Source of the DNA: Patescibacteria group bacterium
Lineage (GTDB): Bacteria > Patescibacteriota > Patescibacteriia > UBA2591 > JAQUPP01
DNA: 64,000 nucleotides
Direction: 5' to 3'
Assembly (NCBI GenBank): GCA_028716665.1
Contig: JAQUPP010000001.1
Location: 128,467-192,466, forward strand
Position 1 is the first letter of the stretch. Every line of letters begins with the position of its first letter. Under the pieces are notes generated by a model. The model made no database searches and had not been told where the DNA came from. It was given only the letters and a program-made list of their open reading frames with translations. The translations under genes were made by a program, and so were the position numbers. Below are positions 2,033 through 47,510 of the stretch, piece by piece.

Positions 2033-2180
2033 AGAATATAAAATGACCAATTGACCTAATTTCTAATTGACCTAATCAATAACTAACAACTAAACGCCCA
2101 ATGTCTAAAATTTTTTGGGTCATTGAGTCATTGGGATTTATTTAGATCAATTAGATTAATTAGACTAATTAGTCATTAAT

Positions 2181-3227: not shown

Positions 3228-3284
3228 ATTTTAGCTTTTTAGGAATTAGCTTATTAGCTTTTATAAATTCTCAAGTTAGTTTTT

Positions 3285-3845: not shown

Positions 3846-3854
3846 AATATTTTT

Positions 3855-4064
3855 TTAGCTTTTAACAAAAGGCAAAAGAGCCATAAATCTTGCTCTTTTA
3901 ATGGCATGAGTTAATTTTCTTTGATGTTTGGCACAGACTCCTCTTTTGCGGCTTGGTAAAATTCTTTCATAAGTGGAAACAAATCGGCGCAAAAGTTCTA
4001 TGTCTTTATAATCAATTTCATTAACGCTATTGATGCAAAAATAACAATGTTTTTGATTTTCCAT
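3855..4064 (-). CDS. rpsR: Ribosomal protein S18
   Basis: The S18 consensus CYFC...IDYKD..LLRRFVS...[19 protein letters not shown] is recognisable. Confidence 0.85.
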
Positions 4065-5061: not shown

Positions 5062-5089
5062 TAATGATTTAAACTATAATAATGTTATT

Positions 5090-6349
5090 ATGACATATTT
5101 TCTTATATTAGGCAATAATCCAACTTTGTCAATAGCTGAAATCTTAAAGATACTCACAGGCCCTTTTGAGATTAAAAAAATATCAGAAGAAGTTTTAATT
5201 ATAGATTTGCCGGGAAATAAAGAAATTGATTTTGCGTATTTGGAAAACCGGTTGGGCGGAACTGTTAAGATCGGCAAAATTTTACCAAATCAGGATTTAA
5301 AAAATTTGGCTGATTTGTTTTCTGAAAAATCCACTAAAGTCAGATTCGGATTCAGTGTTTATCGTCTGGATCATCAAGCTTCAATTTCTCAAATCGTAAA
5401 TTTGATCAAAAATTTGGCTTTGAATTTGAAAAAAGACCTTAAAGAAAAAGGAATTTCTTCCCGCTGGGTCACTTCTCGCGAAGACGCTCTTTCTTCGGTT
5501 ATTGTTCAAACAAACAAGCTTTTAGAAACCGGCGCGGAATTTGTATTTTTCGCCGAGAAAAACGGATTTTTATTCGGCAGAACCTTGGCTTGTCAGGATT
5601 TTAAAGAGTACGGCTTTCGCGATTTTGGCCGGCCGAATCGGTCAATGGAACAGGGAATTTTACCGCCAAAACTGGCCAAAATTATGATTAATCTGGCCGG
5701 CGAACTGGATAAAAAAGCTTTAATTTTAGACCCTTTTTGCGGCGCGGGCACGATTTTGCAAGAAGCAGCCCTAATGGGTTATAAAAATATTATTGGCGCT
5801 GATTTAAACCCCGAAGCGATTAAAGACACTAAGGGAAATTTAGAATGGCTTGCCGAAAACAACCAATTGCCAATGACCAATTACAAAATTTTTCAGGCCA
5901 ATGTTAAAGAAATTTCTAAAAAAATAGACCCTCAATCAATTGATTTAATTGTTGCCGAGCCTTATTTGGGTCCGACCAAAATTTCCAGTTTAAAAGCTCA
6001 ATTGCCGATTATAATGTCTAAATTATCTGATTTATATCTTGGCGCTTTTAAAGAATTTCAAAAAATTTTAAAACCAAACGGGCAAGTGGTGATGATTTTT
6101 CCGATTTATCAGGATTTAAAACAAAATAATGGAATTTTTTCCGAATTTATTTTGCCGGAAATTATCCGCCCAAGGCCGACCAGCCTCGGGCTGGAAAAAA
6201 TAGGCTGGCAAATTATTAATCCCATTCCTGAAAATTTAAAAAATCATCCGATTATCAAATCAACCAAGCGGCAATCAATTATTTACGCCCGAGCCAATCA
6301 AGAAGTCTGGCGCGAAATTTTTATCTTCTCTCTCGGCAAAAATAGATAA
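5090..6349 (+). CDS. Putative RNA (N2-G/N6-A type) SAM-dependent methyltransferase, Trm11/RlmL/UPF0020-like
   Basis: The SAM-binding motif LILDPFCGAGTIL is present, together with a degenerate (N/D)PPY-like AEPYLG. Confidence 0.5.
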   Translation: MTYFLILGNNPTLSIAEILKILTGPFEIKKISEEVLIIDLPGNKEIDFAYLENRLGGTVKIGKILPNQDLKNLADLFSEKSTKVRFGFSVYRLDHQASISQIVNLIKNLALNLKKDLKEKGISSRWVTSREDALSSVIVQTNKLLETGAEFVFFAEKNGFLFGRTLACQDFKEYGFRDFGRPNRSMEQGILPPKLAKIMINLAGELDKKALILDPFCGAGTILQEAALMGYKNIIGADLNPEAIKDTKGNLEWLAENNQLPMTNYKIFQANVKEISKKIDPQSIDLIVAEPYLGPTKISSLKAQLPIIMSKLSDLYLGAFKEFQKILKPNGQVVMIFPIYQDLKQNNGIFSEFILPEIIRPRPTSLGLEKIGWQIINPIPENLKNHPIIKSTKRQSIIYARANQEVWREIFIFSLGKNR

Positions 6350-7337: not shown

Positions 7338-7769
7338 CTATAGTTTCAGTTTTTTTAACAATTCCTCTCGAGCATTGTTTTCTGTTTTTTCGCGACCCCC
7401 TTCTTCAACTGCCCATTTTTCATTTTCTATTTTTACAATACTCTCCCTGATTTTTTTAACAATTAACGAGAGCTGATGGGAGATTTCGAATAATATTTTT
7501 TGTGCCCAAGAGTCTCCATAATAGTCCCCGGCAGACTTAAATTCATTTTTCCCATCAAGAACACAAAAATAATAATAGCTTATCGAGCTGGTGTCATATA
7601 TACCACTTGTATCTTGGCAACCTTCTATAATAATAAATTCTATTCCATTATCAGTTGTTGAGAAATTATCTTTCCCATTTTCCCTCCATTTATCAGTCTC
7701 GAGTTTTGTTAATTTTTTCATGATTTCTCGTGTTTCTGAACTACCTAATTCAATTGGTTCTTTTACCAT
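7338..7769 (-). CDS. Small protein of unknown function, paralog of the kinase C-terminal domain
   Basis: MVKEPIELGSSETREIMKKL...SYYYFCVLDGKNEF...ELLKKLKL aligns to the kinase C-terminal domain and to the 115-aa ORF. Confidence 0.5.
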   Translation of the reverse strand: MVKEPIELGSSETREIMKKLTKLETDKWRENGKDNFSTTDNGIEFIIIEGCQDTSGIYDTSSISYYYFCVLDGKNEFKSAGDYYGDSWAQKILFEISHQLSLIVKKIRESIVKIENEKWAVEEGGREKTENNAREELLKKLKL

Positions 7770-7945
7770 CTTTCCTCCTTTCTTGTAAAAGGCGAGAATA
7801 TTTTTTCTCGCCCCCCTTTAAATAACTTATACTTCCAACTTTTTTATTAATTGCTCTTGAGCTCTTTTTTCTGCCCGTTCTTGTTGTCTTTTCTCTCTTC
7901 TAAGCTTTTTTTCTTCAACTATTTTTTGTTGATCATTTTTTTTCT

Positions 7946-8293
7946 TTAGTTCCTCTTTAGCCCTATGAAAGAGAGACGCAATTCTCTGCCCCCTACTTTT
8001 TCTGCTATAAAAAATCTACCTTCTCCGTCAAGAATCATTAAGGTATATTCTACTACCCATTTTTGACCACTACCGCTGTCATAATCTGCATAGTAGCTAG
8101 AAATATCTTTAATAGTGATTTCCATCTTCCCGCTAATCGTTAATACAAGAGAGTCTTTGTCTATTCTTTCTATTTTATTGAACTTATCAATCCCAATTTT
8201 TTCTAACTTCTCCAAAATTTCTTTTATTTTTATATCACTTAATTTGATCGGTTCTTTTGCCATTTTCTCCTCCTTTTTAAAGAACAATTTCAT
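7946..8293 (-). CDS. Small paralog of the same family, apparently frameshifted. A conserved K/E-rich tail is encoded in another frame down to 7827.
   Basis: MAKEPIKLSD...MILDGEGRFF is family-like. After a T6 run (plus-strand A6 at 8009-8014) the conserved ...GQRIASLFHRAKEEL...EQLIKKLEV tail continues in a different frame and ends at a stop at 7827-7829. Confidence 0.5.
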   Translation of the reverse strand: MKLFFKKEEKMAKEPIKLSDIKIKEILEKLEKIGIDKFNKIERIDKDSLVLTISGKMEITIKDISSYYADYDSGSGQKWVVEYTLMILDGEGRFFIAEKVGGRELRLSFIGLKRN

Positions 8294-8312
8294 TTAATTG
8301 TCTTATATTATC

Positions 8313-8341
8313 ACTATAGCACAAATTTAATTTTTGTCAAG
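8313..8341 (-). promoter_or_regulatory. Sigma-70-like promoter for the small-paralog/kinase operon (minus-strand TTGACA ... TTGTGCTATAGT)
   Basis: The reverse complement reads TTGACA followed by ~17 nt and then an extended -10 TGTGcTATAGT. Confidence 0.45.
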
Positions 8342-8353
8342 TATTCTCGACAT
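8334..8353. promoter_or_regulatory. Candidate operator TTGTCAAG-N5-TCGACA. A similar site lies upstream of the second TrmB paralog.
   Basis: It is an imperfect inverted repeat matching 25972-25990. Confidence 0.35.
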
Positions 8354-8373
8354 AAAGAGAGTGGATAACTAAT

Positions 8374-8401
8374 TTGACATATTTTATGGGTATTATATAA
8401 T
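8374..8401 (+). promoter_or_regulatory. Sigma-70-like promoter TTGACA-N16-TATAAT upstream of the TrmB-like regulator
   Basis: There are exact consensus hexamers, and the -10 lies ~35 nt upstream of the ATG at 8437. Confidence 0.55.
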
Positions 8402-8436
8402 AAAAGTGTCGTCGAAAAATATCAACAAATACGCTT

Positions 8437-9171
8437 ATGCAAATAGAAAAAGTTTTAGAACAATTTAATCTGAATAAAAAAGAAATTAGTGTCTATCTCA
8501 CCTGTTTGGAGCTGGGTCCTTCTACGGCCGGAGTGGTCGCCCAGAAAGCAGGCATAAAAAGAACCAGCGCTTATGATATTTTGGGAGACCTGATAAAAGT
8601 CGGGCTTATTACTCATACTATAAAAAATAATAAAAAATATTTTTTAGCCGAAGATCCGGAAATACTTAAAAAAATTCTTCACGAAAAAGAGAGAGCATTA
8701 GAAGAAGTTCTCCCTCAATTGAAATCTATTTATAATATCCCGGGCATAAAACCAAAAACAAAATTTTATGAGGGAGTTTCCGGGGCAAGAAACATATTTA
8801 GAGAAACATTATCTTGCCGAAAAAAAGAAGCTATGGCCATTCTTCCGTCAGTAGACATTTATGATCTTATCGGAGTGGATTTTGCCAAAGATTATGTCGC
8901 CGCTCGAACGAAATTAAAAATAAAAAGCAGAACCCTGCGCGTTAAGACACGCGAGTCAGAAGAAAAATATTTTTTTCAACACAAAGAACAACTTCGGGAG
9001 ATGCGATATCTTCCAAAGTCAATCACTTTTTATTCAACTATTCTAATTTGGGATGATAAAGTGGCAATTATTACTTCCAAAAAAGAAAGTTTCAGTTTTT
9101 TAATCGAAAGTCAAGAATTCAGCCAAACCATGAAAGCATTATTTGAAATGCTTTGGCTGCAATCAAAATAA
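8437..9171 (+). CDS. TrmB-family HTH transcriptional regulator
   Basis: The N-terminal winged helix (LTCLELGPSTAGVVAQKAGIKRTSAYDILGDLIKVGL) is typical of TrmB, and the 244-aa length fits. It is a paralog of 25201-25944. Confidence 0.65.
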   Translation: MQIEKVLEQFNLNKKEISVYLTCLELGPSTAGVVAQKAGIKRTSAYDILGDLIKVGLITHTIKNNKKYFLAEDPEILKKILHEKERALEEVLPQLKSIYNIPGIKPKTKFYEGVSGARNIFRETLSCRKKEAMAILPSVDIYDLIGVDFAKDYVAARTKLKIKSRTLRVKTRESEEKYFFQHKEQLREMRYLPKSITFYSTILIWDDKVAIITSKKESFSFLIESQEFSQTMKALFEMLWLQSK

Positions 9172-9314: not shown

Positions 9315-10451
9315 ATGAGAATAGGCATAGACGCTCGATTTTACGGCCCGACGGGCAAAGGAATCGGGCGCTACACTCAGGAACTTATCAAAAATCTTGA
9401 AGAAACCCGCCAAAATTTTGCTTCACAAAACTTAGGCGGGCAAAAAGATGATTATTTTATTTTCCTCCGCCAAGAGGGCTTTAATTTATATCATCCTCAA
9501 AACCCTCATTTTCACAAGGTTTTGGCCGATTATCCCTGGTATTCCTGGCAAGAGCAGATATTATTCCCCAGACAACTCGCCTCTCAACGCCTTGATTTGG
9601 TTCATTTTCTCCACTTTAATGTTCCTCTGTTTTATCTCGGCCGGTTTGTAGTGACGATTCATGATTTGACTCATAATCAAACTACTCCAAAAGCTTCAAC
9701 ACACTGGAAATCAATTTTTTATTTTAAAAAAATTATTTATTATTTGATTATTAAAAATGCCATGCAACGGGCGGAAAAAATTATCACGGTTTCTAATTTT
9801 ATTAAAGATTCAATTGTGAAACAATATAAAATTAATCCAAAAAAAATCTCTGTAACTTATGAAGCGACTGATATGGCGCCAAAGATTTCAGACTTTGAAC
9901 CGGTTTCGGAGCAGATCCCGGATAATTATTTATTATATATCGGCAATGCTTACCCGCACAAAAATTTGGAACGTTTAATCAAGGCTTTTAAAATTGTTTT
10001 ATCAAAACACCCGGGGATTCGTTTAATTTTAGTCGGGAAAATGGATTATTTTTATCATAATTTGCAAAAATTAACGCAAGAATTGGGGTTGGAAGAAAAA
10101 GTTATTTTTTCCGGTCAAGCTTCTGATGAAAAATTAGCTTGGCTTTATAAAAATGGTTTGGCTTATGTGTTTCCTTCTTTATCTGAGGGATTTGGCCTGC
10201 CCGGTTTGGAAGCAATGAAGTTCGGTCTACCGGTAATCGCCTCAAAACATCAACCCTTGCCTGAAATTTATGGTTCAGCTGCTTTATATTTTAATCCTAA
10301 AAACATAGAAGAAATGGCTGCAACCATTAATCAAGCTATAGAAAACAAAAATCTTCGCGAAGAACTAATTCAAAAAGGATTTGAACAAATTAAAAAATAT
10401 TCTTGGGAAAAATGCGCCCAAGAAACAGAAGAAATTTACAAAAATTTATGA
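9315..10451 (+). CDS. Glycosyltransferase family 1 (GT4-like)
   Basis: The C-terminal EX7E-type region FPSLSEGFGLPGLEAMKFGLPVIAS is present. The start was chosen at MRIGIDARF by comparison with the paralog. Confidence 0.8.
   Translation: MRIGIDARFYGPTGKGIGRYTQELIKNLEETRQNFASQNLGGQKDDYFIFLRQEGFNLYHPQNPHFHKVLADYPWYSWQEQILFPRQLASQRLDLVHFLHFNVPLFYLGRFVVTIHDLTHNQTTPKASTHWKSIFYFKKIIYYLIIKNAMQRAEKIITVSNFIKDSIVKQYKINPKKISVTYEATDMAPKISDFEPVSEQIPDNYLLYIGNAYPHKNLERLIKAFKIVLSKHPGIRLILVGKMDYFYHNLQKLTQELGLEEKVIFSGQASDEKLAWLYKNGLAYVFPSLSEGFGLPGLEAMKFGLPVIASKHQPLPEIYGSAALYFNPKNIEEMAATINQAIENKNLREELIQKGFEQIKKYSWEKCAQETEEIYKNL
9343..9671 (+). repeat. Direct repeat copy 1 (~329 bp) of a recent tandem duplication
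   Basis: It is near-identical to 10476-10804, with about four mismatches seen by eye. Confidence 0.8.
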
Positions 10452-11008
10452 AAATCGGAATCGACGCCAGATTCTACGGCCCGACGGGCAAAGGAATCGG
10501 GCGCTACACTCAGGAACTTATCAAAAATCTTGAAGAAACCCGCCAAAATTTTGCTTCACAAAACTTAGGCGGGCAAAAAGATGATTATTTTATTTTCCTC
10601 CGCCAAGAGGGCTTTAATTTATATCATCCTCAAAACCCTCATTTTCACAAGGTTTTGGCCGATTATCCCTGGTATTCCTGGCAAGAGCAGATATTATTCC
10701 CCAGACAACTCGCCTCTCAACGCCTTGATTTAGTTCATTTTCTCCACTTTAATGTCCCTCTGTTTTATCTCGGCCGGTTTGTGGTGACGATTCATGATTT
10801 GACTTTATTGCAATACCCGACTCAACATAAAAATTCTTTAGCGAAATTTATATATTCTTTCAAACACGGATTTTTTATTTTAATTTTGAAAAATGCTCTG
10901 CGACGGGCGGAAAAAGTCATTACTGATTCGGAAAAATCGAAACAAGATTTGATTAAAAATTTCCATATAAAATCAGAAAAAATAAAAGTTGTTTATTTGG
11001 CCTGTTAG
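10448..11008 (+). pseudogene. Chimeric or truncated glycosyltransferase paralog. Its N-terminal 120 aa are nearly identical to the upstream GT, it diverges in the middle, and it stops before the catalytic C-terminal domain.
   Basis: It is 201 aa long. Bases 10476-10804 are about 99% identical to 9343-9671, and the ATG overlaps the upstream stop (ATGA). Confidence 0.5.
10476..10804 (+). repeat. Direct repeat copy 2 (~329 bp)
   Basis: It is near-identical to 9343-9671. Confidence 0.8.
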
Positions 11009-31622: not shown

Positions 31623-32690
31623 ATGAAAAAAAATAAAGTTATTCATTTAAAAAGAAGTTATCGCATCGGCCGCGAAATTATCGCCGATATGAAGGGCTGC
31701 GACGCGCGAATCATTAATGATGAGCAGCTTTTAAAAAGATTGGTTCAGGAAGCTATCCACAAAACAGACCATCATTTATTAAGTTTGGTCTCCAAAAAGT
31801 TTTCACCGGTCGGAATAACGATTGTCGGAATTTTAGCCGAAAGCCATATCAGCGTGCATACTTATCCGGAAATCGGCTATGTCGGCATTGATATTTTTAC
31901 TTGCGGCGCGAATAAACCAGAGCCGATCCTTGATTATTTAAAGGAAAAAATCGGCGCCAAAGATGTAAGTTGGACGTTTATTAAAAGAGGAACAATGCGT
32001 CAATGGAAGACAATTTTGCAAAGTGAAGGATTCAGGCGTGAAATTGAGGTGATAAAAACAATTCATAAACGACAAACTCCATATCAAAATTTGGAATTGG
32101 TTAAAACAAAAAAACTCGGTACCTGTCTTTTTTCAAACGGTATTTTGCAATATGCAACAACTGATTCAAATTTTTATGATGATCAAATGTTAAAAAAATT
32201 AAAACTTATCAAGGCGGAATCGGTTTTGATTATCGGCGGCGGAGATTGTTCGGTTCTGAAAAAAATAATTCCGAATAAGCATTTGAAAGACATTTATATG
32301 TTTGAGCAAGATCAGCAAGTGGTGGAAATTGCCAAAAAATATTTGGGAGCAAATAAGGTTTTGAGAGATCCGCGTTTGAAAATGTTTTACGGCGACGCAC
32401 TTGAAACCATTCCCTATTTGAAAGACAAAAAAATTGACTACGCGGTGGTGGATATTATTTCAGAATCAGAAACAAAATTTAAAAAATTCTACAACGAAAT
32501 GATGAAATTGCTGCATGAAATAAAGGTTCCGGCTTGGTCGGCTTGCGCGGGAAATATTTTGGAAACGCAAAAACTGAAATGCATTAAAAATTCAGCCGAA
32601 AAATTTTATGATCATATTATCATGGAAGATAAATGGTTTTTGTCCGGCGGAATGACAAGATTTTTATTCGGTGAAAAACTGAGAAAATAA
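31623..32690 (+). CDS. Fusion of S-adenosylmethionine decarboxylase proenzyme (SpeH-type) and a spermidine-synthase-like domain
   Basis: The N-terminal half has the SpeH pyruvoyl motif LAESHISVHTYPE and FTCG. The C-terminal half has SpeE-like IIGGGDCS, VEI and GDA, but lacks the D-x-x-D-P-x-G-P motif. Confidence 0.7.
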   Translation: MKKNKVIHLKRSYRIGREIIADMKGCDARIINDEQLLKRLVQEAIHKTDHHLLSLVSKKFSPVGITIVGILAESHISVHTYPEIGYVGIDIFTCGANKPEPILDYLKEKIGAKDVSWTFIKRGTMRQWKTILQSEGFRREIEVIKTIHKRQTPYQNLELVKTKKLGTCLFSNGILQYATTDSNFYDDQMLKKLKLIKAESVLIIGGGDCSVLKKIIPNKHLKDIYMFEQDQQVVEIAKKYLGANKVLRDPRLKMFYGDALETIPYLKDKKIDYAVVDIISESETKFKKFYNEMMKLLHEIKVPAWSACAGNILETQKLKCIKNSAEKFYDHIIMEDKWFLSGGMTRFLFGEKLRK

Positions 32691-32691
32691 T

Positions 32692-33582
32692 ATGAAGAAG
32701 AAAAAATATACATTTGAATTTCATCCCACGGGAAAAATTCTTGAGGGCAAAAAAGCGAATTTTAATTATGCTTACGGTTTTGCTTATGACAAACTTATTT
32801 ATAAAGGCAAAACCAAATATCAGAAAATTGAACTTTTTGACACGCCGTGGCTGGGCAAATTATTGAAATTGGACGGTTATTTCCAAACCTCTGAAAAAGA
32901 TGAATTTTTTTATCACGAAGCAATGACGCAACCGGCTTTGTTCTCGCATCCCAATCCGAAAAAAGTTTTGATTATCGGCGGCGGAGATGGCGGAATTTTA
33001 AAGCAAGTTTTGGCGCATCGATCAATTGAGAAAGTAATAATGGTGGAAATAGACAAGGAAGTGATTGATTTTTCCAAAAAATATTTAAAATTTATCCACA
33101 AAAATTCATTTAAAAATCCTAAAGCTGAAATTATTGTCGGAGACGGGAAAAAATTTGTGGAAGAAACAAAAGAAAAATTTGATGTGATTATTTCCGATTT
33201 GACCGATCCGATTGGTCCGTCAAAAGCGCTTTATACAAGAAGTTTTTATCAGAAAATCTCATCAAAACTGGGGAAAAACGGCATTTTTATGACACATTTG
33301 GATTTGGTGACCACTCGGCCGGAATTATCAAAATGGATTTATAAAAATTTAAAATCTGTTTTTAAATTTTCTTCGGTTTTTGCTTCTTATATCCCTCTTT
33401 ATGGATCTTTAATGGCTTTCGGTATTAACAGCAATTATATTGACGCGACAAAAATAAAAAATGAAATTATTCAAAAAAGATTAAAAGAACGCAAGGTGAA
33501 AAATTTGAAATGGTATTATCCGAAAATTCATCAGGCGATTTTTGCCTTGCCGGTTTATCTTAAAAAGCTATTTAAAATTTAA
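32692..33582 (+). CDS. speE: Spermidine synthase / aminopropyltransferase
   Basis: It has the canonical LIIGGGDGG, MVEID, VGDG and ISDLTDPIGP motifs. Confidence 0.8.
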   Translation: MKKKKYTFEFHPTGKILEGKKANFNYAYGFAYDKLIYKGKTKYQKIELFDTPWLGKLLKLDGYFQTSEKDEFFYHEAMTQPALFSHPNPKKVLIIGGGDGGILKQVLAHRSIEKVIMVEIDKEVIDFSKKYLKFIHKNSFKNPKAEIIVGDGKKFVEETKEKFDVIISDLTDPIGPSKALYTRSFYQKISSKLGKNGIFMTHLDLVTTRPELSKWIYKNLKSVFKFSSVFASYIPLYGSLMAFGINSNYIDATKIKNEIIQKRLKERKVKNLKWYYPKIHQAIFALPVYLKKLFKI

Positions 33583-33660
33583 GTTAGTGATATAATTTAG
33601 AAAATTAAAAAAGTCTCTCTAAAAATTTTTAGAGAGACTTTTTTAATATATTAATTTTTT

Positions 33661-38526: not shown

Positions 38527-39240
38527 ATGCCGCAAAAGAAAAATACTTTTATTATAGTTTTTTTCATCTTAATCGGCATTGGCGCCGTTACTCTTGGTTT
38601 TCTGAAAATAAAAGGGGCAATTTATGCTCCTTTTATTAGTTATTCCAAACCAAAATCATTAACCCAAGAAGAGATTTTGGCCGGCTTAAAAATTATTGAT
38701 ACGGATCAAGACGGTTTTTCTGACTTCGACGAACAGTTTAAATATCAAACTTCGGCTTATTTGGCGGACTCTGACAGTGACGGATATTCTGATAAAACCG
38801 AAGTAGACGCGCAGTCCGATCCTTTAAATCTTATTTCAACCCCGCTTAATAAATTGGCAGCGGGAAGTGAAAATAATTTAGAAAAAACATTTTCCAGCCC
38901 CAGTGTTGGGACATTAAATCCAACTTCTAATTTAAGCAATGAGTCTGTTCAGAAAATTCGTGATTTATTGGTGGATAAAGGAGGTTTAAGCCGTGATGTT
39001 GTGGATAAGCTTGATAGCGAAACTCTTCAGAAGTTATATAATGAAACTAAGACAGAAACAGGAATAGATTTGGAAGCAATAGCAACGCCGAATACTGCTT
39101 CGGGCGATTTTTCTGATTTGGATATAAATGAGTTACGTCAACTCTTGATCACGCAAGGAGCGGATCCGGAAATATTAAATAAAATAGATGACGAAACATT
39201 AAAATTAATGTTTTTACAGTCAGCTCAACAATCACAATAA
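38527..39240 (+). CDS. Membrane-anchored protein with calcium-binding DxDxDG-type (thrombospondin-type-3-like) repeats
   Basis: An N-terminal TM segment is followed by DTDQDGFSDFDE and DSDSDGYSDKTEVD. Confidence 0.45.
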   Translation: MPQKKNTFIIVFFILIGIGAVTLGFLKIKGAIYAPFISYSKPKSLTQEEILAGLKIIDTDQDGFSDFDEQFKYQTSAYLADSDSDGYSDKTEVDAQSDPLNLISTPLNKLAAGSENNLEKTFSSPSVGTLNPTSNLSNESVQKIRDLLVDKGGLSRDVVDKLDSETLQKLYNETKTETGIDLEAIATPNTASGDFSDLDINELRQLLITQGADPEILNKIDDETLKLMFLQSAQQSQ

Positions 39241-39287: not shown

Positions 39288-42200
39288 TTGGCTTTTAAAT
39301 TTTTTATGAAAGCTAAAAAATTATTAAATTTTAGAATTTTAACCGGGGCGGTTTTATTGGTAATGTTTTTATCGATAATGACTCCGGTTTTATTTTATCC
39401 AAAACAAGCTCAAGCCCAAATGGTAGTTCATGATCCGCTTAAAGTGATAGTGGATAAGGTTTGGGAATTTTTAAAATTAGCTTGGAAAAATGGCGCGGGA
39501 ATCGCTTACAAAAACGCGATTAACACTTATACCAGTCAAATAGCCACGCAAACTGCCGAATGGGTGGCCTCGGGAGGAAAAGGACAAACCCCAATGTTTA
39601 TCGCCGATCCGGACTATTGGGTTAAGGTGGGAGATAATATGTTGGGAGAGTTTATTGACGCGGCCGCAGGACCGAAAGGCTTTTTCGGACAAAGCTTGTG
39701 CGATCCGATTGATCCGACTCTCCGTTTGAACATTTTAATTTCTTTTGATCCGCTTTATCGTCAAAAAACTTGGACACAAGAAAACAAATGTTCTTTCACT
39801 AAAATAAGACAAAGAATCAAAGAGGCAAGTCAAAAAAATTTAATTGAATTTTCCGTGGATTTGAAAGAAGGACCAGTTGGCAGATATCAGTCCAGTTTTA
39901 AATCCATTTTTGAAGCGGACAGTAAATTAAATGAATGGCAGACCGCTGATTGGCCGGGCGGGGATCACAAAACAAATCTGAAAATGATTGCTGATAAAAT
40001 TACAAGCATTCAAAAAGATTTTTCTCAAACCGTTGAGGATTTAAAAGCCAATAAAAACAATACTTCATTAATTCAAAAAGAAAATATTCAAGCTGATTTT
40101 CGAAACAGAATCAATAATAATGTTTGGGGACCGGACGAACCTCCGGCGACACAATATGGACAATATTTGAAATTTTGGCAAAAAAATACGTCAGCCTGCG
40201 CGGCCAAAAATAAAGAAAATTTTTGTCAGGATTTGAATTGTTATAATATCTGCAGCAAAACTGATTGTTTGGGTAATTTTACCAATTGTTTGGCTTATAC
40301 CAATAGAGCCAATCTTTATGTTAAACAATTAATAGATTGGACCAACCAATTGACAGGCATGATTAATAAAACTGATTTTACCGCTTTGACAACCAAAGAA
40401 GAGGTTACCTTGGAAGATATCGGCAGAATGTATTCGGAAGATAATGATTTGAGAATTACTTTAAGTCTCCAATCCAGTTTGATGGAAAAACAAGCCAATG
40501 CGGTATCTAAATCTCAATATTTTCAATCTCTCCAGGGCAGGCTTAATGATGTGACAACAAAAATTTCCGGTTTGACTAAAACTCCGTCATCATTGGTTGA
40601 TACGGCGGCTCGGGAGGCGGTAAAAAATGGCACAGCCAGTCCGATGCAATATACCGGTGTGGCGGTGGCCGACGCAATTGGCATATTTACCAATACTTTA
40701 ATTGATAAACTTTTAAAACAAATTTTTGAGAAAGGCTATAATGTTAATGTTTCACCGGAGGCGGTTAGAACACAGCCATTTTTAAGCGGAGAAGGAGGGT
40801 TGATTACTTTGGGTTCAAACGCGGGTGGATCGCTTTTTTCCGACTTGACAGTGGCTTCTTTGAAAAAAGGCGGGGAAATATCAATTTATGACGAATACTC
40901 AGTTTGCCCACAAGATCCGAAATACGCTTTGCCGAGCAATTGCGTAATGGATTCGGGAATGGTTAGAGCACTTGAAGACAATTTGACTTTAAAACAAGCC
41001 ATGGATAAAAATTTAATTCATTCGGATTGGTTGGTCAGCGGACGAAGTAAAAAAGACGCAGCTACTGATTATTTGGGCCGCTACAGTTTAACCAATATTA
41101 AAAAATTGCGCGCGATCAGAGTTTTTCCATTAGGTTTGGAAATTGCGGCGCAAAAAATTTATGACGGTAAATTGGGTGATGCTCAATTTACTTTAAAAGA
41201 TATTGTTGACGGATTTGATAAAGTCAGTTCAGACGGTGATTGTCGGATTTATATTGATCCTACTAAAACTCCGAAAGAAGGAAGTATGGAAATTCCATGT
41301 CCGGTTTGGGACAATGATCATTGTTATACTAATGTAGGGAAAACAAAAGAATCATTTTCCGCTTCACCTTTTTGTCATTTGGTTGATCCGAATTGGGTTT
41401 TAAAAGCGCCGTCTTTTCAATGTGAAACCATTGCTTATTCGGCTATTCCTTTACCCGGTTCCAACCAACGTCAGGAAACCTGTATTGATATGAAAGATTG
41501 TATTCACGAAGACGCGAATGGGAAATGCGATACTTGGGGTTATTGCACCAGAGAAAAAAATATTTGGCGGGCAGGCGGAAATTCTTGCGACAGCCAATTT
41601 AATACTTGTCAAACTTATACTAAAACCAGCGATAAAAAAAGTTCTTCTTATTTGGCCAATACTTTAAATTTTGCTAATTGCAGCGTCAATGATGTGGGTT
41701 GTAAATGGTATTGTTCCGATTATCAAAAAAGTTTTGGGGCCAATAAGGCAGATATTTGGGCTTGCGAAAAACCGGGAGTATCATTGACTTGCATAGACAG
41801 AGATGAAAGCGGCCAATGTACAACTTATGGGAAAAATGGTACTGAGCAAAATCCTACCCAAAACGCCATTTTCTTTAATCGCAATGTTGAAAAATGCGAC
41901 AAAAATTCAGAGGGCTGCCATGAATATATTCGGACTGCTACTGATTCAAAAATTTATTTAAAAACCGCGCCAGAATGGATGGATTGTGAAGGTGACAGCC
42001 CGAGTTTGGAATGTTCTAATTTCGCCACCAGTTGTGAAAAAGAAGATGTCGGTTGCGGATTATATGCGCCAATCAATAATGATCCGACTATCCCGGGAAT
42101 TGTTTCTGAAGGAAATCGTTGTTCGGAAAAATGTGTTGGAACGAATTATTTCAAAGAAATGAAGACAAATTTTGAAACCAATCAGCCCGACGTGCTGCTA

Positions 42201-45200
42201 ATTCCTTCTTTAGCCAAATCTTGTTCTGCGCCGGGTTGCGAAGAATTTACCAATTTAGATGAAGTGGCAAAGGGTGGTGAAGGAATACAATATTATTCTT
42301 ATATTCGAACTTGCCAAAAACCGGATACGCAAACTTGCGGTTATTATTACACTTGGGTTGGTTCAGATACCAATGGTTATCAATTAAAAAAATATTATTT
42401 AACAGCTGGGGCAGGAGGACCGGCAGAAATTGACAGCCCGTCTGCTCAATTCGGAATATGTGATAAAGACCAAATTTTTACTAATCCTCATTGCAAAGAA
42501 TTTTATGACGCGGATGGAAAAGTAAGTTATCGTATTTACGAAAATACTATTACTTGCTCTGATGATTGTCATCCTTTAAGGATAACTATTCCAACTGGTT
42601 TTGACTCAACTAAATGTTCAAATAGCGGCGGGACATGGGATAATGGAAATTGTATTTATCAAACCATTCCTACTGAAAGCGTTTCTTGTAGCAAGGCCAA
42701 TATCGGCTGCCGAGAATATAAAGGCAACGCCGCCAATAATGTTCGCCAAATTTTAAAAAGTGATTTTGAAGACGCGAAGGACCAAGGTTGGAATGGGACG
42801 CCTGTTAATGAATCAGGAGTTTATACGGGTCATTCATTGCAGAGCCCATCATTTATGATTTCTCACTCAGTTTCTTTAACGAGCGAAAAATCTTATATAC
42901 TTTCTTTCTGGGCCAGGGGCAATGGTGACTACTACTCATTTTTTACAAAAGATAAAGAAACTGTTTGGTTTAATAATAAAGATAAAACAACTATTTTTTC
43001 CGATGATTGGCAAGAAATTAAATTGGGGCCAATTTATTCGAACAATCAATTATCTTCTGGTGATTGGGAACTAAATATTAGAGGTCCTAATGGATTTTAT
43101 GTTGACGATATTATTTTAAAAGAAGTTAAAGACGATTTGAATTTAATCAAAGATTCTTGGAAAACAAAAATGCCTGCTGGATGCACTGTCTCGGGTTGCC
43201 AGGCATATAAAGATCAAAACAACAAACTTCAATATCTGACTTCATTTGCTCGTCTTTGTGATGAAAAATCAGTCGGCTGCGAAGCTTTGATTGACACCAA
43301 AAATTCCACTTCGCCGTTTGCTGAAACATTTAAAAATGGAACAACGGTTCCGGACGACAGTCCGATTTATTTGATCAATGATTCCAAAAAATCCTGTCAA
43401 GAAACAAACAAGGGTTGTCAAAGATTCGGTTTGCCGACGCTTTCTTCCGAAGATACGGTAGTTGGTTGGTCTGATTTATATTTAAGAAATAATCCTGATA
43501 ATTATTCTGCCAAGATTCTTTGCGACAGCGCGAATACCGGTTGCGAAGAATATAAAATCAACGGTTCCGGCAGTTCGGTTTATTTCAAAGATCCGGGCGA
43601 AAATCTTTGCGAATGGCGCGAAAAAATAATGGTCGGAGGAGAAAATAAAACAGGTTGGTTCAAAAAGGGAACCAGCCAGCCTTGCTATTACAACACAGAC
43701 AACACTCCATATCAAATCAATGGTCTTTATAGTATTAAAACAAGTGCTGAACCTGATTATAAAAATATAGCCGGAGTTTGTCCTCAAAAACAAACCGGTT
43801 GCACGCAATTTACTGATTTTGGAGCCACGGTTGGCAATAATTTAATTAATGGCGGAGATTTTGAAACCGGAAATTTGGGTCAATGGACACCTGCCTATGG
43901 TTCAGTAGCAAAACCTGATACAATTCAGCTTTTAAGCGGATTTGGTCAACCTGCTAATTTTTTAAGAATTGAAAGCGACGGTTCAAGTCCTCGTTTTGGC
44001 GTAGCTCAATACCCGGAATTTAATGATTTGCCAAGTGGCGCCAGTTTTAATTTTTCGGCTAAAATTAAATTAGATAATAATCTTACTGATGACGTAAAAG
44101 CGACTGTTTATTTGGACTTATTTTATCGGGGCAATAAAGAATTTGACAATCAAGGTTGTATTGTAAAAATTGACGACAAGTCTGTTCCCCGAGATTGTTC
44201 AGATTCGGAAAGCGCAATTGTTCGGACGTGTGCCGACCAAGGGAAAGATAACTGTACTGGTTCTAATGATTTAGAAAAATCTTATGTACAATGTTTAAAA
44301 GATGTTAATTTGGGAAATGTAAATGGTTGGTGTTTTAATTGGGTTTATGGCTATCAGCCGGCTGTCGGTTGGGGAGGAATTGATACAACCAATAAAGATT
44401 GGATAACTTTGAATAAAACAATTGTTGCCGGCGGAAAAGATAATCCTAAAAATTTGCCTTTATATAAAATAATGGTATCCCCTGTTTTAGTCAAAGGAAA
44501 TGGGACTGCGGGAGTTATTGATATCACAAATAGTAGTGTATATGCTGATTTTGATGATATCAGTTTGAAACAAATTCAAAATTATTATTATCTTGATGAC
44601 GACAAGTTGGATCAATCTTCCTGTCAAGGCAATGTTTCACAAAAACAAGATTGCATTCTCTTACTTGATTCAAGTTTAAAAAATGCCGATGGTCAAGTTT
44701 TGGCCACTTATAATACTTTTGCCACTTACAAAAAATCGGAAGCAACTAATCCAAAATACGGATTGGTTTCGCCGGTTGATTGTACAAAAGGAGTACCACA
44801 AACTGGCAAAAGTTGTACAGATGCTGAATATACAAATACAGATTATTGTAAATATTGTTCGTCTTACGGACAAATTAAAAATGACGCGAATACAATTCTT
44901 AAAGTCCGGCAAGATAGAACTTGCGGCGAATGGCTGACTTGCACCAGCTCGCGTTCAGAATGGGATAAAACTAGCGGTTCTTTTAAAGATATTTGTGAAG
45001 CGGTTGGCCGTTGCGACAAATTGATCGGCACTGGAAATGCGAATCAATGCGGTCATCTGATTTGGGAAAATGACCCGAAAGTTTTAGCCGATAATATATA
45101 TCAAAACCGAGATGTTTCTTGGAGCGGGATGGATTACGCCGGCCACTCAATTTACAATATGTACCCGATTGAAAGATTATGGGCCAAGGAATATAACGGT

Positions 45201-47510
45201 GTTTACAGATTAAGTTATCTTGATACAAACGGGAGCGTTTATGGAGTCGATGGAATTAAACTTAAATCGTCGATACAACCAGATAGTGAGATTAATTCAA
45301 CGCAATTGACAAAATCTACTATTGGGAAAACCTGTCGAGCTTATCCGGAAAAAGATTCGCCATTTAAGAGTGACGTGGAAAAATATTATTTTTCCGATGT
45401 TAATGTTTGCAATGATACGAATAATACCGGCGAAAATAAAGATTGCCAATGCAGTTACACTAAAGATGATTATGGCGGAACAACAAAATATTATAATACG
45501 GCGCCGACAACAACGGGAATTTGTGTGAGCAGCAGTGATGGCAAGGAAACAGGAGATACAACTCAGAATATTTGCGTGAGCACTCAAAATGATCATACTC
45601 CGGGAATTTGGAAAACTTTAACCAAACAGACAAACGCGCTTGGTCTGAGAGGTTTTTGTTTGGAACCGGATCCATCAAAACCTGCTGATTTAAATGCTTG
45701 CATTACCTGGTGGCCCGGCGCGGCAATCGGCGACCCGGATATTTATAATCAATTCACTTCTGCCGGCTATCAAGCCGCGAATGAGCGACAATGGTATTGT
45801 GCTAAAAAAATTGAAGTTCCAGTAATAGATTTACAATCAGAGGGTAATTTAACAATGACTTCTCATAACGATTGTAAATCTGGAGAAACATGGAAATGCG
45901 CTTGGCAGAAAGGTAATATATGTAATGATGTGGAATGGTGGCCACATAATTGGAGATCGGATAGTTGTTCAACAAATATAACAGGTATTTATTCTGTTAG
46001 TGAGCTTGATAATTGTAATTTAGATTGTCCCGCTCAAGCGATATTTTCTTTGGGTAATAGCTCATCAAATAGAGTCAAAAATTTAAAGGCGGACATGGTT
46101 GAAAGTATTAATATTAATGTTTGTTCTTGTACCAGCGCTAATGGTGCTGGCGATACGAATACCTGTTCAAGCGGTTCCTGTACAGATATTAGTGGGAATG
46201 ATTCAGGAAGTCTTTGGGGCTGGGATCCTCTGGTATTATCTTTAAATGATTCTAATTCTTGGACATCATCTTACGGTTCGGGGAATGGCGTAAAGATAAT
46301 TGCTAACTGGAAAGAAGATCAAACTTTTGATTCTTTGGTATTAAAAGCAGCAGATGAAAAGAATTTTGGATACTTTAAAATAAATTCAATCACTTTAAAA
46401 ATTAAAAATGATTGTGAACAAGTTGTTAAAATTGCGGATACTGACAGAATGGCCACCGCTTACACTAATCGGGTAAATAATATTAAAAATTATTTTAATG
46501 ATTCTGTGGATGGTAAAACAGAGTTTGAAAATTGTACTCCTTGGGGCGCGGTTAAAAATTGGGATACATCAACAGTTTATATTACAGAATCATCAAATAC
46601 TTGTGAAATAAATAAGGGTGCTTTATATGATTATACGGGCAACATAAAAGACTCTGTTTTTGCTAAAAAACTTTTTGCTCGATCTTTTGATGTCAAAACA
46701 TTTTCTTTGTCTGATTTTCAATATCATACGGGAAGCTTATATACTGTTTTGGATTCTACTAATACTCCTCAAGTGGCGGCCCCAACCTGTGATGAATTAA
46801 CGAATGTTTGTAAAATGGATTCTGAGGGGGCTTCAAATCATATTACTATCGGTAATGTCTATAAAGATGGAGAGAACATTACTCGTGTTCAGTCATATTT
46901 GGCAATTTTGAAATTTTATGCTTGGGCAAATGAAAATCAAATGCCGATCAGGGAAATTTCCATTGATTGGGGAGATAGAGCTGGCGAAGTTAATCCTTAT
47001 TCGGTAATAGCTAAAAATCACAAACAGGCTTGTTGTGAAGGAAGTGGCAGTTGTGCAAATCTCGGAGTTGCATGTAAAGAAGGAATCAATGCCGGCAAAG
47101 CTTGCAATAAAGATTCAGATTGTTTAAAAGAATATGCTTTATGCACAAATAAAAAATGTCAGGCCGGGGTTAATCAAAATCAGGCTTGTGATAAACCAGA
47201 AGATTGTCCGATTTATAGCGAATGTCAAAATATGGTTAATTTAAATTTCGGCAATATTCCTGATGCCTGCACAAATAATTATTTCCAATTTACTCATATT
47301 TATCAATGCGCCGGCGAAGGTTCACCGGGTTGGAATGCCTTTAAGTGTTCCAATACTTGTTGTTTTAAACCTCGCGTTTATGTTCAAGATAATTGGGGTT
47401 GGTGTAATAATGGAAAGGAGAATGTATTAAAATCATCTAATGGTAAATGTAATGGATTGGGGATAGCAGGCACACCATTCGGAGGCTTAATAATTATTAG
47501 ACCGCAATAA
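39288..47510 (+). CDS. Giant (2,740 aa) Cys-rich secreted/anchored surface protein with CBM4/9-like (galactose-binding-like) domains
   Basis: It has a signal/TM N-terminus and more than 100 Cys. Two regions match the CBM pattern (DFEDA..GWNG...; NGGDFETGNLGQWT...). Confidence 0.7.
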   Translation: MAFKFFMKAKKLLNFRILTGAVLLVMFLSIMTPVLFYPKQAQAQMVVHDPLKVIVDKVWEFLKLAWKNGAGIAYKNAINTYTSQIATQTAEWVASGGKGQTPMFIADPDYWVKVGDNMLGEFIDAAAGPKGFFGQSLCDPIDPTLRLNILISFDPLYRQKTWTQENKCSFTKIRQRIKEASQKNLIEFSVDLKEGPVGRYQSSFKSIFEADSKLNEWQTADWPGGDHKTNLKMIADKITSIQKDFSQTVEDLKANKNNTSLIQKENIQADFRNRINNNVWGPDEPPATQYGQYLKFWQKNTSACAAKNKENFCQDLNCYNICSKTDCLGNFTNCLAYTNRANLYVKQLIDWTNQLTGMINKTDFTALTTKEEVTLEDIGRMYSEDNDLRITLSLQSSLMEKQANAVSKSQYFQSLQGRLNDVTTKISGLTKTPSSLVDTAAREAVKNGTASPMQYTGVAVADAIGIFTNTLIDKLLKQIFEKGYNVNVSPEAVRTQPFLSGEGGLITLGSNAGGSLFSDLTVASLKKGGEISIYDEYSVCPQDPKYALPSNCVMDSGMVRALEDNLTLKQAMDKNLIHSDWLVSGRSKKDAATDYLGRYSLTNIKKLRAIRVFPLGLEIAAQKIYDGKLGDAQFTLKDIVDGFDKVSSDGDCRIYIDPTKTPKEGSMEIPCPVWDNDHCYTNVGKTKESFSASPFCHLVDPNWVLKAPSFQCETIAYSAIPLPGSNQRQETCIDMKDCIHEDANGKCDTWGYCTREKNIWRAGGNSCDSQFNTCQTYTKTSDKKSSSYLANTLNFANCSVNDVGCKWYCSDYQKSFGANKADIWACEKPGVSLTCIDRDESGQCTTYGKNGTEQNPTQNAIFFNRNVEKCDKNSEGCHEYIRTATDSKIYLKTAPEWMDCEGDSPSLECSNFATSCEKEDVGCGLYAPINNDPTIPGIVSEGNRCSEKCVGTNYFKEMKTNFETNQPDVLLIPSLAKSCSAPGCEEFTNLDEVAKGGEGIQYYSYIRTCQKPDTQTCGYYYTWVGSDTNGYQLKKYYLTAGAGGPAEIDSPSAQFGICDKDQIFTNPHCKEFYDADGKVSYRIYENTITCSDDCHPLRITIPTGFDSTKCSNSGGTWDNGNCIYQTIPTESVSCSKANIGCREYKGNAANNVRQILKSDFEDAKDQGWNGTPVNESGVYTGHSLQSPSFMISHSVSLTSEKSYILSFWARGNGDYYSFFTKDKETVWFNNKDKTTIFSDDWQEIKLGPIYSNNQLSSGDWELNIRGPNGFYVDDIILKEVKDDLNLIKDSWKTKMPAGCTVSGCQAYKDQNNKLQYLTSFARLCDEKSVGCEALIDTKNSTSPFAETFKNGTTVPDDSPIYLINDSKKSCQETNKGCQRFGLPTLSSEDTVVGWSDLYLRNNPDNYSAKILCDSANTGCEEYKINGSGSSVYFKDPGENLCEWREKIMVGGENKTGWFKKGTSQPCYYNTDNTPYQINGLYSIKTSAEPDYKNIAGVCPQKQTGCTQFTDFGATVGNNLINGGDFETGNLGQWTPAYGSVAKPDTIQLLSGFGQPANFLRIESDGSSPRFGVAQYPEFNDLPSGASFNFSAKIKLDNNLTDDVKATVYLDLFYRGNKEFDNQGCIVKIDDKSVPRDCSDSESAIVRTCADQGKDNCTGSNDLEKSYVQCLKDVNLGNVNGWCFNWVYGYQPAVGWGGIDTTNKDWITLNKTIVAGGKDNPKNLPLYKIMVSPVLVKGNGTAGVIDITNSSVYADFDDISLKQIQNYYYLDDDKLDQSSCQGNVSQKQDCILLLDSSLKNADGQVLATYNTFATYKKSEATNPKYGLVSPVDCTKGVPQTGKSCTDAEYTNTDYCKYCSSYGQIKNDANTILKVRQDRTCGEWLTCTSSRSEWDKTSGSFKDICEAVGRCDKLIGTGNANQCGHLIWENDPKVLADNIYQNRDVSWSGMDYAGHSIYNMYPIERLWAKEYNGVYRLSYLDTNGSVYGVDGIKLKSSIQPDSEINSTQLTKSTIGKTCRAYPEKDSPFKSDVEKYYFSDVNVCNDTNNTGENKDCQCSYTKDDYGGTTKYYNTAPTTTGICVSSSDGKETGDTTQNICVSTQNDHTPGIWKTLTKQTNALGLRGFCLEPDPSKPADLNACITWWPGAAIGDPDIYNQFTSAGYQAANERQWYCAKKIEVPVIDLQSEGNLTMTSHNDCKSGETWKCAWQKGNICNDVEWWPHNWRSDSCSTNITGIYSVSELDNCNLDCPAQAIFSLGNSSSNRVKNLKADMVESININVCSCTSANGAGDTNTCSSGSCTDISGNDSGSLWGWDPLVLSLNDSNSWTSSYGSGNGVKIIANWKEDQTFDSLVLKAADEKNFGYFKINSITLKIKNDCEQVVKIADTDRMATAYTNRVNNIKNYFNDSVDGKTEFENCTPWGAVKNWDTSTVYITESSNTCEINKGALYDYTGNIKDSVFAKKLFARSFDVKTFSLSDFQYHTGSLYTVLDSTNTPQVAAPTCDELTNVCKMDSEGASNHITIGNVYKDGENITRVQSYLAILKFYAWANENQMPIREISIDWGDRAGEVNPYSVIAKNHKQACCEGSGSCANLGVACKEGINAGKACNKDSDCLKEYALCTNKKCQAGVNQNQACDKPEDCPIYSECQNMVNLNFGNIPDACTNNYFQFTHIYQCAGEGSPGWNAFKCSNTCCFKPRVYVQDNWGWCNNGKENVLKSSNGKCNGLGIAGTPFGGLIIIRPQ

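Follow-up and report, generated by a model that had tools for sequence, protein, structure and literature searches.

A Patescibacteria fusion of S-adenosylmethionine decarboxylase with a remodelled aminopropyltransferase-like domain, encoded beside a canonical SpeE

In several bacteria, fusions of S-adenosylmethionine decarboxylase (AdoMetDC) with an aminopropyltransferase (APT) have proved to be bifunctional (PMC11107197, PMC12803844). Such fusions are known from Ca. Pelagibacter (PMC11107197), and two proteins of 358 aa (deltaproteobacterium MBW2649524) and 376 aa (Ca. Krumholzibacteria MCK4773364) display both AdoMetDC and spermine synthase activity (PMC12803844). Here, a fusion of this type was analysed in a stretch of 64,000 nucleotides (the window) from contig JAQUPP010000001.1 of a Patescibacteria group bacterium with a small genome. 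The fusion gene (ORF1) is directly followed by a gene for a canonical polyamine APT (SpeE, ORF2), and the pair very probably constitutes a two-gene AdoMetDC and SpeE polyamine module. The fused APT-like domain has kept its cofactor-binding and catalytic residues and carries a changed acceptor site. It is tentatively proposed, with a rough probability of 0.45, that this domain remains an active enzyme with an acceptor other than putrescine.

Where a bacterial genome encodes two APTs, one typically carries out the spermidine step and the other the tetraamine step, and validated bacterial spermine synthases carry the motif D(G/C)G (PMC11107197). Acidic residues grip the terminal nitrogens of polyamine acceptors (PMC3585406). 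The dimerisation surface of SpeE is formed by C-terminal helices together with the N-terminal domain (PMC12812037), and the N-terminal domain of human spermine synthase (SMS) is essential for the dimer (PMC3585406, PMC12803844). Neofunctionalisation of SpeD to pyruvoyl-dependent ornithine or arginine decarboxylases (SpeDC, SpeDA) is widespread, the candidate phyla radiation included, and in V. vadensis SpeD is fused to a degraded SpeDC (PMC10407285). The trypanosomatid AdoMetDC prozyme is described as a catalytically dead paralogue paired with a live AdoMetDC (PMC6221367). Searches of the literature on Patescibacteria polyamine fusions and on APT pseudoenzymes yielded nothing on the present subfamily. 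The AdoMetDC-APT fusion as such is already known, and its paired and remodelled version in Patescibacteria and Ca. Magasanikbacteria appears to be undescribed.

The fusion protein and its retained active-site residues

Both genes lie on the forward strand, ORF1 at 31623..32690 (355 aa) and ORF2 at 32692..33582 (296 aa). The junction reads TAA-t-ATG, ORF2 starting 1 nt past the stop codon of ORF1. A first-pass annotation of this DNA had called an AdoMetDC fusion followed by a SpeE, and these gene calls were borne out by Pfam and NCBIfam matches and by the coordinates. Direct translation also recovered in place the ESH cleavage motif and the GGGDCS loop that it had pointed out. The features of both genes are the following:

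31623..32690, + strand: ORF1, class 1b AdoMetDC proenzyme fused to an APT-like domain, 355 aa
31677..31991, + strand: AdoMetDC (SpeD/SpeH) domain, residues 19-123 (Pfam AdoMet_dc PF02675, E 2.7e-32)
31842..31844, + strand: Ser74 codon, predicted self-cleavage site between Glu73 and Ser74 and pyruvoyl precursor (alignment to T. maritima S63)
32004..32153, + strand: SpeE-fold beta-sheet N-terminal domain, residues 128-177, with Trp128, Gln155 and Gln176 (Spermine_synt_N PF17284, E 2.6e-7)
32154..32687, + strand: Rossmann-type APT-like core, residues 178-355 (PF01564 at 197-299)
32235..32252, + strand: GGGDCS cofactor loop, residues 205-210, Asp208 corresponding to Asp104 of human spermidine synthase (SpdSyn) (translation and residue mapping)
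32304..32318, + strand: EQDQQ, residues 228-232, Glu228 and Asp230 corresponding to the ribose-binding E124 and D126 of human SpdSyn (residue mapping)
32451..32492, + strand: equivalent of the catalytic Asp (Asp277), then a shortened lid (DIISESETKFKKFY), at the site of the canonical D-x-x-D-P-x-G-P
32692..33582, + strand: ORF2, canonical polyamine APT (SpeE), 296 aa (NF002010, 319.8 bits against a cutoff of 260)

Judged by its sequence, ORF1 starts with an intact class 1b AdoMetDC proenzyme. It passed the cutoffs of the NCBIfam class 1b AdoMetDC equivalog TIGR03330 (112.3 bits against 75.65) and of PF02675 (111.7 bits against 25), and its AdoMetDC domain is 32% identical to AdoMetDC of T. maritima. 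In the latter, S63 is the self-processing serine and H68 and C83 are the catalytic His and Cys (PMC10407285). E62, S63, H68 and C83 of T. maritima align with E73, S74, H79 and C94 of ORF1, all four invariant across 24 aligned homologues. Direct translation gave AESHISVHTYPE at 31836-31871, spanning Ser74, and self-cleavage between Glu73 and Ser74 is predicted. For the substrate, it is operon logic only that points to AdoMet and not to ornithine or arginine: genes for ornithine decarboxylase (ODC) and arginine decarboxylase (ADC) stand separately in the relatives, which have no other SpeD.

The description of ORF2 as a textbook SpeE was confirmed. In addition to NF002010, the second SpeE equivalog cutoff was passed (TIGR00417, 273.6 bits against 249.55), and GGGDGG (32977-32994), DLTDPIGP (33196-33219) and YHE were read by direct translation. 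The equivalent of Tyr241 and the C-terminal helices are both present. The best match in the PDB was E. coli SpeE (E 5e-58), with full-length alignments to 3O4F, 1INL and 1IY9. By its sequence, ORF2 is a complete SpeE.

The C-terminal half of ORF1 matched Spermine_synth (PF01564) at residues 197-299 with 54.8 bits (cutoff 22.9), covering profile positions 18-124 of 186 only, and failed both SpeE equivalog cutoffs (NF002010, 107.6 against 260; TIGR00417, 80 against 249.55). Alignments and structural model showed that the C-terminal three-helix domain is absent. The protein stops right after the last beta-strand, and the ~45 C-terminal residues which form the dimerisation helices of canonical SpeE are missing. 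The AlphaFold2 model of ORF1 had a mean predicted local distance difference test score of 89.4, with dips to 77 at residues 281-290. Its best full-length structural match was human SMS 3C6K (Foldseek E 1.6e-23), and SpeE structures, including ligand-bound SpdSyn, superposed on the C-terminal domain with a root-mean-square deviation of 2.1-3 Å over 236-250 columns (Foldseek). As modelled, the fused APT-like fold is intact. Alignment of the fused domain with ORF2 over 138 aa gave 31% identity. A hidden Markov model (HMM) of the fused domain scored short AdoMetDC-APT fusions of other lineages (median 78, maximum 105 bits) and canonical SpeE (median 78) about equally, and the end of the model was reached in the alignment by short fusions only. 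The fused half may stem either from spermine-synthase-like short fusions or from a truncated duplicate of the local SpeE.

For residue mapping, ORF1 was aligned to human, T. maritima and E. coli SpeE and to human SMS, together with 31 family sequences at 53-96% identity. We take D104 and D155 of human SpdSyn to be cofactor-site residues. Human D173 is the base deprotonating the attacking amine (residue roles from PMC12812037). The equivalents in ORF1 and their conservation in the family are as follows:

Gln155, human SpdSyn Q49: conserved in 30/31
Gln176, human SpdSyn Q70: conserved in 31/31
Tyr185, human SpdSyn Y79: conserved in 31/31
Asp208, human SpdSyn D104: conserved in 30/31
Glu228, human SpdSyn E124: conserved in 31/31
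Asp230, human SpdSyn D126: conserved in 31/31
Asp/Asn258, human SpdSyn D155: Asp or Asn in 31/31 (T. maritima has Asn)
Asp277, human SpdSyn D173: conserved in 31/31

The alignment to SpeE structures and sequences that had been suggested as a check therefore located the catalytic Asp at Asp277. The reported absence of D-x-x-D-P-x-G-P stood in part: the second Asp and P-x-G-P are indeed missing, and the first, catalytic Asp is kept. Neither this absence nor the GGGDCS loop holds up as a sign of inactivity, and the case for a degenerate domain is weaker than the first-pass annotation had assumed. Human SMS and most short AdoMetDC-APT fusions also lack D-x-x-D-P-x-G-P. Validated spermine synthases have D(G/C)G, the short fusions are variable in the loop, and the orthologue of ORF2 in another locus (L020) reads GGGDCG.

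The cofactor and catalytic columns showed a mean conservation of 0.96 against 0.70 over the whole domain, and this invariance was reached in none of 20,000 random column sets. Within the loop, Cys209 is found in 30/31 and Ser210 in 31/31 family members, and further on Gln231 and Gln232 are invariant and Gln229 is the majority residue (25/31). Cys209 and Gln231 are rare at the same columns elsewhere. According to the mapping, Asp186, Asp208 and Asp277 are the three acidic residues left around the position of the aminopropyl amine of decarboxylated AdoMet (dcAdoMet). The retained residues suggest that the fused domain probably binds dcAdoMet or methylthioadenosine (MTA).

Over 21 genome pairs, the AdoMetDC half had a mean identity of 75%, a level which spans both operon types, the fused APT-like half one of 56.1% and the neighbouring SpeE one of 56.8%. 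The fused domain, matching SpeE in identity across these pairs, is therefore as constrained as a working enzyme. Two short fusions from other lineages, P0140 (350 aa; L017:52-1104) and P0147 (359 aa; L015:993-2072), have kept the AdoMetDC triad (ESH, His and Cys intact) and lost GGGD and the catalytic Asp, the latter replaced by Ser or Leu. A purely structural role does not preserve these motifs, because both were lost in these two proteins devoid of APT function. SpeE is not present on their short contigs.

Two other identities of the fused domain were considered and rejected. A decaying relic was ruled out by the SpeE-level constraint and the invariant cofactor site. As for a methyltransferase, all Pfam methyltransferase matches were sub-threshold, and Asp208 is kept at what is presumably the position of the residue excluding the AdoMet carboxylate.

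Distribution of the family and its pairing with SpeE

The architecture of ORF1 is shared by 31 homologue clusters (53-96% identity, 348-367 aa, one partial sequence of 300 aa), and is therefore neither a one-off nor an assembly artefact. The glycine loop reads GGGDCS in 30 of them and GGGEGS in one. The nearest public relatives of the window are Patescibacteria metagenome-assembled genomes (MAGs), L018 (JAQUOF010000001.1) and L019, both with 96% identity in ORF1. An apparent insertion in L019 and L027 (match of ~1.5 kb) was ruled out, as tblastn had joined the fusion and the adjacent SpeE. Among 185,579 species-representative genomes, relatives with at least 53% identity were detected at 10 loci only, all in Patescibacteria or Ca. 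Magasanikbacteria.

A search with the family profile covered 1.84 billion representative proteins. After clustering at 50% the family is reduced to one representative (P0023, 655 bits), the next matches reaching at most 193 bits. More than 100 proteins matched the profile at E < 1e-30; among the matches listed most were fusions, many of them of 343-376 aa and aligned end to end to the profile. The search of other genomes, also proposed by the first-pass annotation, thus showed the fusion itself to be ordinary.

A canonical SpeE was found beside the fusion in 14/14 distinct loci (11 clusters at 90% identity), upstream or downstream of it and often overlapping or within ~30 nt. Four layouts of the module were recorded: ODC-SpeE-fusion, ADC-SpeB-fusion-SpeE, pyruvoyl-dependent arginine decarboxylase (ArgDC)-fusion-SpeE, and fusion-SpeE alone, as in the window. 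A second APT was absent from the flanks that were available, in some cases short ones, at all 17 other fusion loci (6 short, 11 long). The first-pass annotation had added that retained catalytic residues and common fusions would make this an ordinary variant. That is largely the case: fusions are common and validated, and the family retains the catalytic Asp, every dcAdoMet ligand and the equivalent of Tyr79. What sets the subfamily apart from all other fusions examined is its own set of acceptor-site changes and the constant pairing with SpeE.

ODC, ADC, agmatinase and pyruvoyl ArgDC gave no match in the 64-kb window; the diamine source of its module is encoded outside the window or imported. 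No second SpeD was detected in the window either.

Several relatives showed additional genes at the module. In L020 (Patescibacteria MAG122, JBFLZX010000008.1), a 591-aa protein with reversed domain order is encoded directly upstream of the fusion orthologue (2147-3922). It consists of a complete canonical SpeE (GGGDGG, DTTDPIGP) followed by apparently two AdoMetDC-like repeats. Pfam recognised one of them (PF02675 at 460-564, 31.5 bits), and on visual inspection the usual His and Cys are missing from the repeats. In total, the locus comprises three domains of APT type and two or three of SpeD type. An ATP-grasp gene, D-Ala-D-Ala ligase-like, lies between fusion and SpeE in the same locus (5089-6099). 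A homologue 35% identical to it is found near the module of L005, where SpeE is directly followed by a lysine 2,3-aminomutase-like radical-SAM gene (9957-10982 and 7523-8455 for the two L005 genes together). The ATP-grasp gene near the module, seen in 2/14 loci and absent from the window, may hint at polyamine conjugation or be a coincidence.

In L007, a pyruvoyl-dependent ArgDC (PF01862; 4454-4999) is located directly upstream of fusion and SpeE, with no ureohydrolase within 5 kb, which suggests a route from agmatine to N1-aminopropylagmatine, or a SpeB elsewhere. A LAGLIDADG homing endonuclease-like ORF with a faint Pfam match was observed just downstream of SpeE in L008 (7086-7712) and in L009. 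When the flanks of L001, L003, L008 and L010 were compared, several Magasanikbacteria had the module between polynucleotide phosphorylase (PNPase) upstream and transaldolase and Smr downstream. None of these three flanking genes had a match in the 64-kb window, and as all are missing there the polyamine module has moved during evolution.

The acceptor site and the function of the fused domain

By its predicted self-cleavage, ORF1 would yield a beta chain of ~73 aa and an alpha chain (74-355), the latter bearing the pyruvoyl group and the whole APT-like domain. ORF1 would supply dcAdoMet, and ORF2 would use it to aminopropylate a diamine imported or made elsewhere, with spermidine or N1-aminopropylagmatine as product. 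The fused domain would take dcAdoMet made a few nanometres off on the same polypeptide and use it to aminopropylate a substrate other than putrescine. The simplest candidate for this acceptor would be the triamine produced by ORF2, giving a tetraamine. It is proposed that the separate SpeE is always kept because the fused domain is unable to use putrescine. Continued catalysis is favoured because invariant Asp, Tyr and cofactor ligands typify enzymes and decay in dead versions, and because genomes with two APTs normally divide the spermidine and tetraamine steps. An acceptor that is no polyamine, less cationic or bearing a carboxylate, is hinted at by conserved lysines of the lid, yet appears improbable.

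The comparison of five acceptor-site positions is given here:

Position 280: Ser/Asn in the fusion family; Asp in canonical SpeE (human D176); Met or Asp in short fusions; Ala in human SMS
Position 342: variable in the fusion family (Gly/Thr/Ser/Leu); Tyr in canonical SpeE (human Y241); Phe/Tyr in 29/33 short fusions; Y351 in SMS
Position 279: Ile/Val in the fusion family; Thr in canonical SpeE, short fusions and human SMS
Position 174: Val/Ile/Thr in the fusion family; Val/Ile in reference SpeEs, variable in neighbouring SpeEs; Asp/Glu in 21/33 short fusions; D167 in SMS
Position 179: Thr/Ser in the fusion family; Glu in canonical SpeE and short fusions; E172 in human SMS

Such changes weigh against an active transferase. 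As aligned, the family is devoid of every acidic acceptor residue known from either binding mode: there is no acidic residue in the columns of human SpdSyn D176, SMS D167 and SMS E172, and the column of SMS E353 falls in a one-residue deletion. Position 342, the column of SpdSyn Y241 and SMS Y351, has a conservation of only 0.42. In the lid, which is shortened by 4-5 residues, the pattern [ED]-x-K-x-K-x-F-Y is conserved, and its Lys285 and Lys287 should disfavour a polycation as acceptor. No similarity to human SMS was detectable past the catalytic Asp. Taken as a set, the acceptor-site columns are conserved at 0.64 against the domain average of 0.70, but the same columns reach 0.63 in seven canonical SpeE neighbours, so that the test at set level does not discriminate. 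As these columns vary also in the neighbours, only individual acceptor residues are informative. With the acidic terminal-nitrogen ligands of known enzymes gone, the acceptor site has been either rebuilt or abandoned.

Around the lid, residue 283 is acidic, Lys285 and Lys287 are conserved, and the Asp at +3 and P-x-G-P are missing. The motif at the catalytic Asp is D[ILV][IV] in the fusion family, against DLT in short fusions, and IPS[FY]xExW of short fusions and human SMS has become F[LF]S-x-G-M. A further change was observed in the subclade of the window (P0001-P0008), where Cys or Ser (Cys308 in ORF1, window 32544-32546) takes the place of a Gln that aligns with Q197 of E. coli SpeE and Q315 of human SMS. 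This column presumably corresponds to human SpdSyn Q206. Among family members 19/31, and among short fusions 28/33, have retained the Gln; its replacement represents a further loss in the acceptor region of this subclade.

As the main rival, although we regard it as somewhat doubtful, the fused domain may be a pseudoenzyme which would bind dcAdoMet or MTA without transfer, acting as a dimerisation or regulatory module (e.g. in product sensing) or in hand-off to SpeE, with ORF2 alone making spermidine. The loss or variability of all acidic and aromatic acceptor-binding residues and the short Lys-bearing lid are better explained in this way than by catalysis, and Asp186, Asp208 and Asp277 would be enough for binding alone. 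The pairing with SpeE in 14/14 loci is accounted for equally well by a pseudoenzyme and by an active transferase, and its strictness would be explained most simply if the fusion gave AdoMetDC activity only. Precedents of one live and one dead half exist in human SMS, in the V. vadensis SpeD-SpeDC fusion and in the prozyme. However, the dead APT halves of the same architecture (P0140, P0147) have lost the cofactor motifs which are invariant here, the catalytic Asp and Tyr are invariant, and the constraint equals that of a working SpeE. In addition, the C-terminal helices of the SpeE dimerisation surface are missing. One specific form of this proposal would be a ligand-sensing pseudoenzyme, in which the polyamine site is gone and a tight dcAdoMet pocket with three Asp controls or activates the AdoMetDC half or passes dcAdoMet to SpeE; we regard it as rather unlikely.

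In contrast to a domain specialised on another acceptor, ORF1 could be an ordinary bifunctional AdoMetDC-spermidine/spermine synthase that uses putrescine, like the deltaproteobacterial and Krumholzibacteria fusions, ORF2 being redundant or differently regulated. Its architecture and size are those of the validated 358- and 376-aa fusions (PMC12803844), it has end-to-end HMM matches to short fusions, and the cofactor and catalytic residues are kept. Redundancy would nevertheless not predict an adjacent SpeE in 14/14 loci against 0/17 at other fusion loci, the IPS[FY]xExW acceptor motif is replaced, and the family forms an isolated single cluster (655 bits against at most 193 for the nearest other fusions), which makes such an enzyme quite improbable. 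Even less credence is given to a neofunctionalised pyruvoyl ornithine or arginine decarboxylase in the SpeD-like half, which would supply the diamine. This neofunctionalisation is widespread, also in the candidate phyla radiation (PMC10407285), and ODC, ADC and agmatinase were not found in the window. Yet the modules of the relatives already contain a pyridoxal phosphate-dependent ODC or ADC, an arginase-fold enzyme or a pyruvoyl ArgDC, and no other SpeD homologue, so that SpeE would have no source of dcAdoMet. In the same sense, the window has no second SpeD, the AdoMetDC equivalog cutoff was passed, and the half is 75% conserved across both operon types.

Should the fused domain be active, its acceptor site would be built without any of the acidic and aromatic residues of known enzymes, and production of a second polyamine by ultra-small bacteria would be implied. 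Should it be inactive, it would represent the first pseudoenzyme of APT origin joined to a live AdoMetDC, with possible allosteric control of the dcAdoMet supply in organisms with few regulators. A ligand-sensing pseudoenzyme would represent a bacterial single-polypeptide counterpart of prozyme-type regulation and an exact mirror of animal spermine synthase.

Surroundings of the locus and comparison with known systems

The window has a G+C content of ~35%, and the genes around ORF1 and ORF2 are of the housekeeping type: DeoC, a ComM-like Mg-chelatase ATPase, leucyl-tRNA synthetase and KsgA. One further feature was recorded between ORF2 and a convergent LysM/CHAP gene:

33604..33647, no strand assigned: palindromic hairpin with a 20-bp stem and 4 G-C pairs only (consensus scan only)

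This hairpin is likely the end of the ORF1-ORF2 transcription unit and may act as a bidirectional terminator. About 6 kb downstream of the module, a 2740-aa ORF with a TTG start (39288-47510) is preceded by a small protein with a bacterial TSP3 repeat (38527-39240).

Short bacterial fusions are the closest in layout. They share with ORF1 the N-terminal class 1b AdoMetDC and the APT fold, a length of ~345-376 aa, the lack of the C-terminal three-helix domain and, mostly, of D-x-x-D-P-x-G-P, and they match the ORF1 family end to end by HMM (P0091-P0191); the assayed 358- and 376-aa fusions were compared to ORF1 through presumed relatives, not through their own sequences. Most of them read DLTMHPEAFT and end with IPSFCExWVFA, retaining DLT, an aromatic IPS[FY] and usually Glu, unlike the ORF1 family, and the last position of their glycine loop is G, S, Y, F or T. 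The other fusions stand alone, with no second APT nearby at any of the 6 short and 11 long loci, and make spermidine and spermine themselves, whereas the ORF1 family is paired with SpeE. In score they also remain remote, reaching at most 193 bits against 655 bits within the family. Human SMS as query matches the short bacterial fusions at 30-34% identity; because it finds them and the motifs are similar, they fit the description of the animal-spermine-synthase relatives in PMC12803844.

With canonical SpeE (E. coli 3O4F, T. maritima 1INL, human 2O06), ORF1 has in common the N-terminal beta domain, the Rossmann core and equivalents of Q49, Q70, Y79, D104, E124, D155 and D173. It differs by GGGDCS in place of GGGDGG and by the lack of equivalents of D176, P-x-G-P and Y241. 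In bacterial genomes with two APTs (PMC11107197), two APT-type domains per genome with a presumed division of labour are likewise found, but both members there have canonical acceptor motifs, while in the present pair the acceptor site of the AdoMetDC-fused member is remodelled. The prozyme and the V. vadensis SpeD-SpeDC fusion combine a live AdoMetDC with a dead polyamine-enzyme paralogue, and thereby offer a precedent for a pseudoenzyme. Their dead partners are AdoMetDC paralogues without catalytic residues, in contrast to the APT domain of ORF1, in which catalytic and cofactor residues are kept.

Human SMS (3C6K) resembles ORF1 in its three-domain layout and in the absence of the Asp at +3, of P-x-G-P and of the C-terminal helices, and both were aligned by hhalign with 97.5% probability over residues 131-283. 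It has DLTAVPIST at the catalytic Asp276 and ends with ...ELWVFYTVWKKAKP (sequence checked against PDB 3C6K), and its Y351 and E353 have no equivalents in ORF1. The polarity is reversed: in human SMS the AdoMetDC-like domain is dead and the APT live, whereas in ORF1 the AdoMetDC is intact and the APT in question. If the latter were a pseudoenzyme, the fusion would be, by analogy, the mirror image of animal spermine synthase and functionally reminiscent of the prozyme. Bacterial AdoMetDC-APT fusions are the proposed ancestors of animal spermine synthase, whose decarboxylase half died and became structural. The subfamily of Patescibacteria and Magasanikbacteria may have gone the opposite way, or its transferase half may have specialised anew, and in this way it bears on the evolution of animal spermine synthase.

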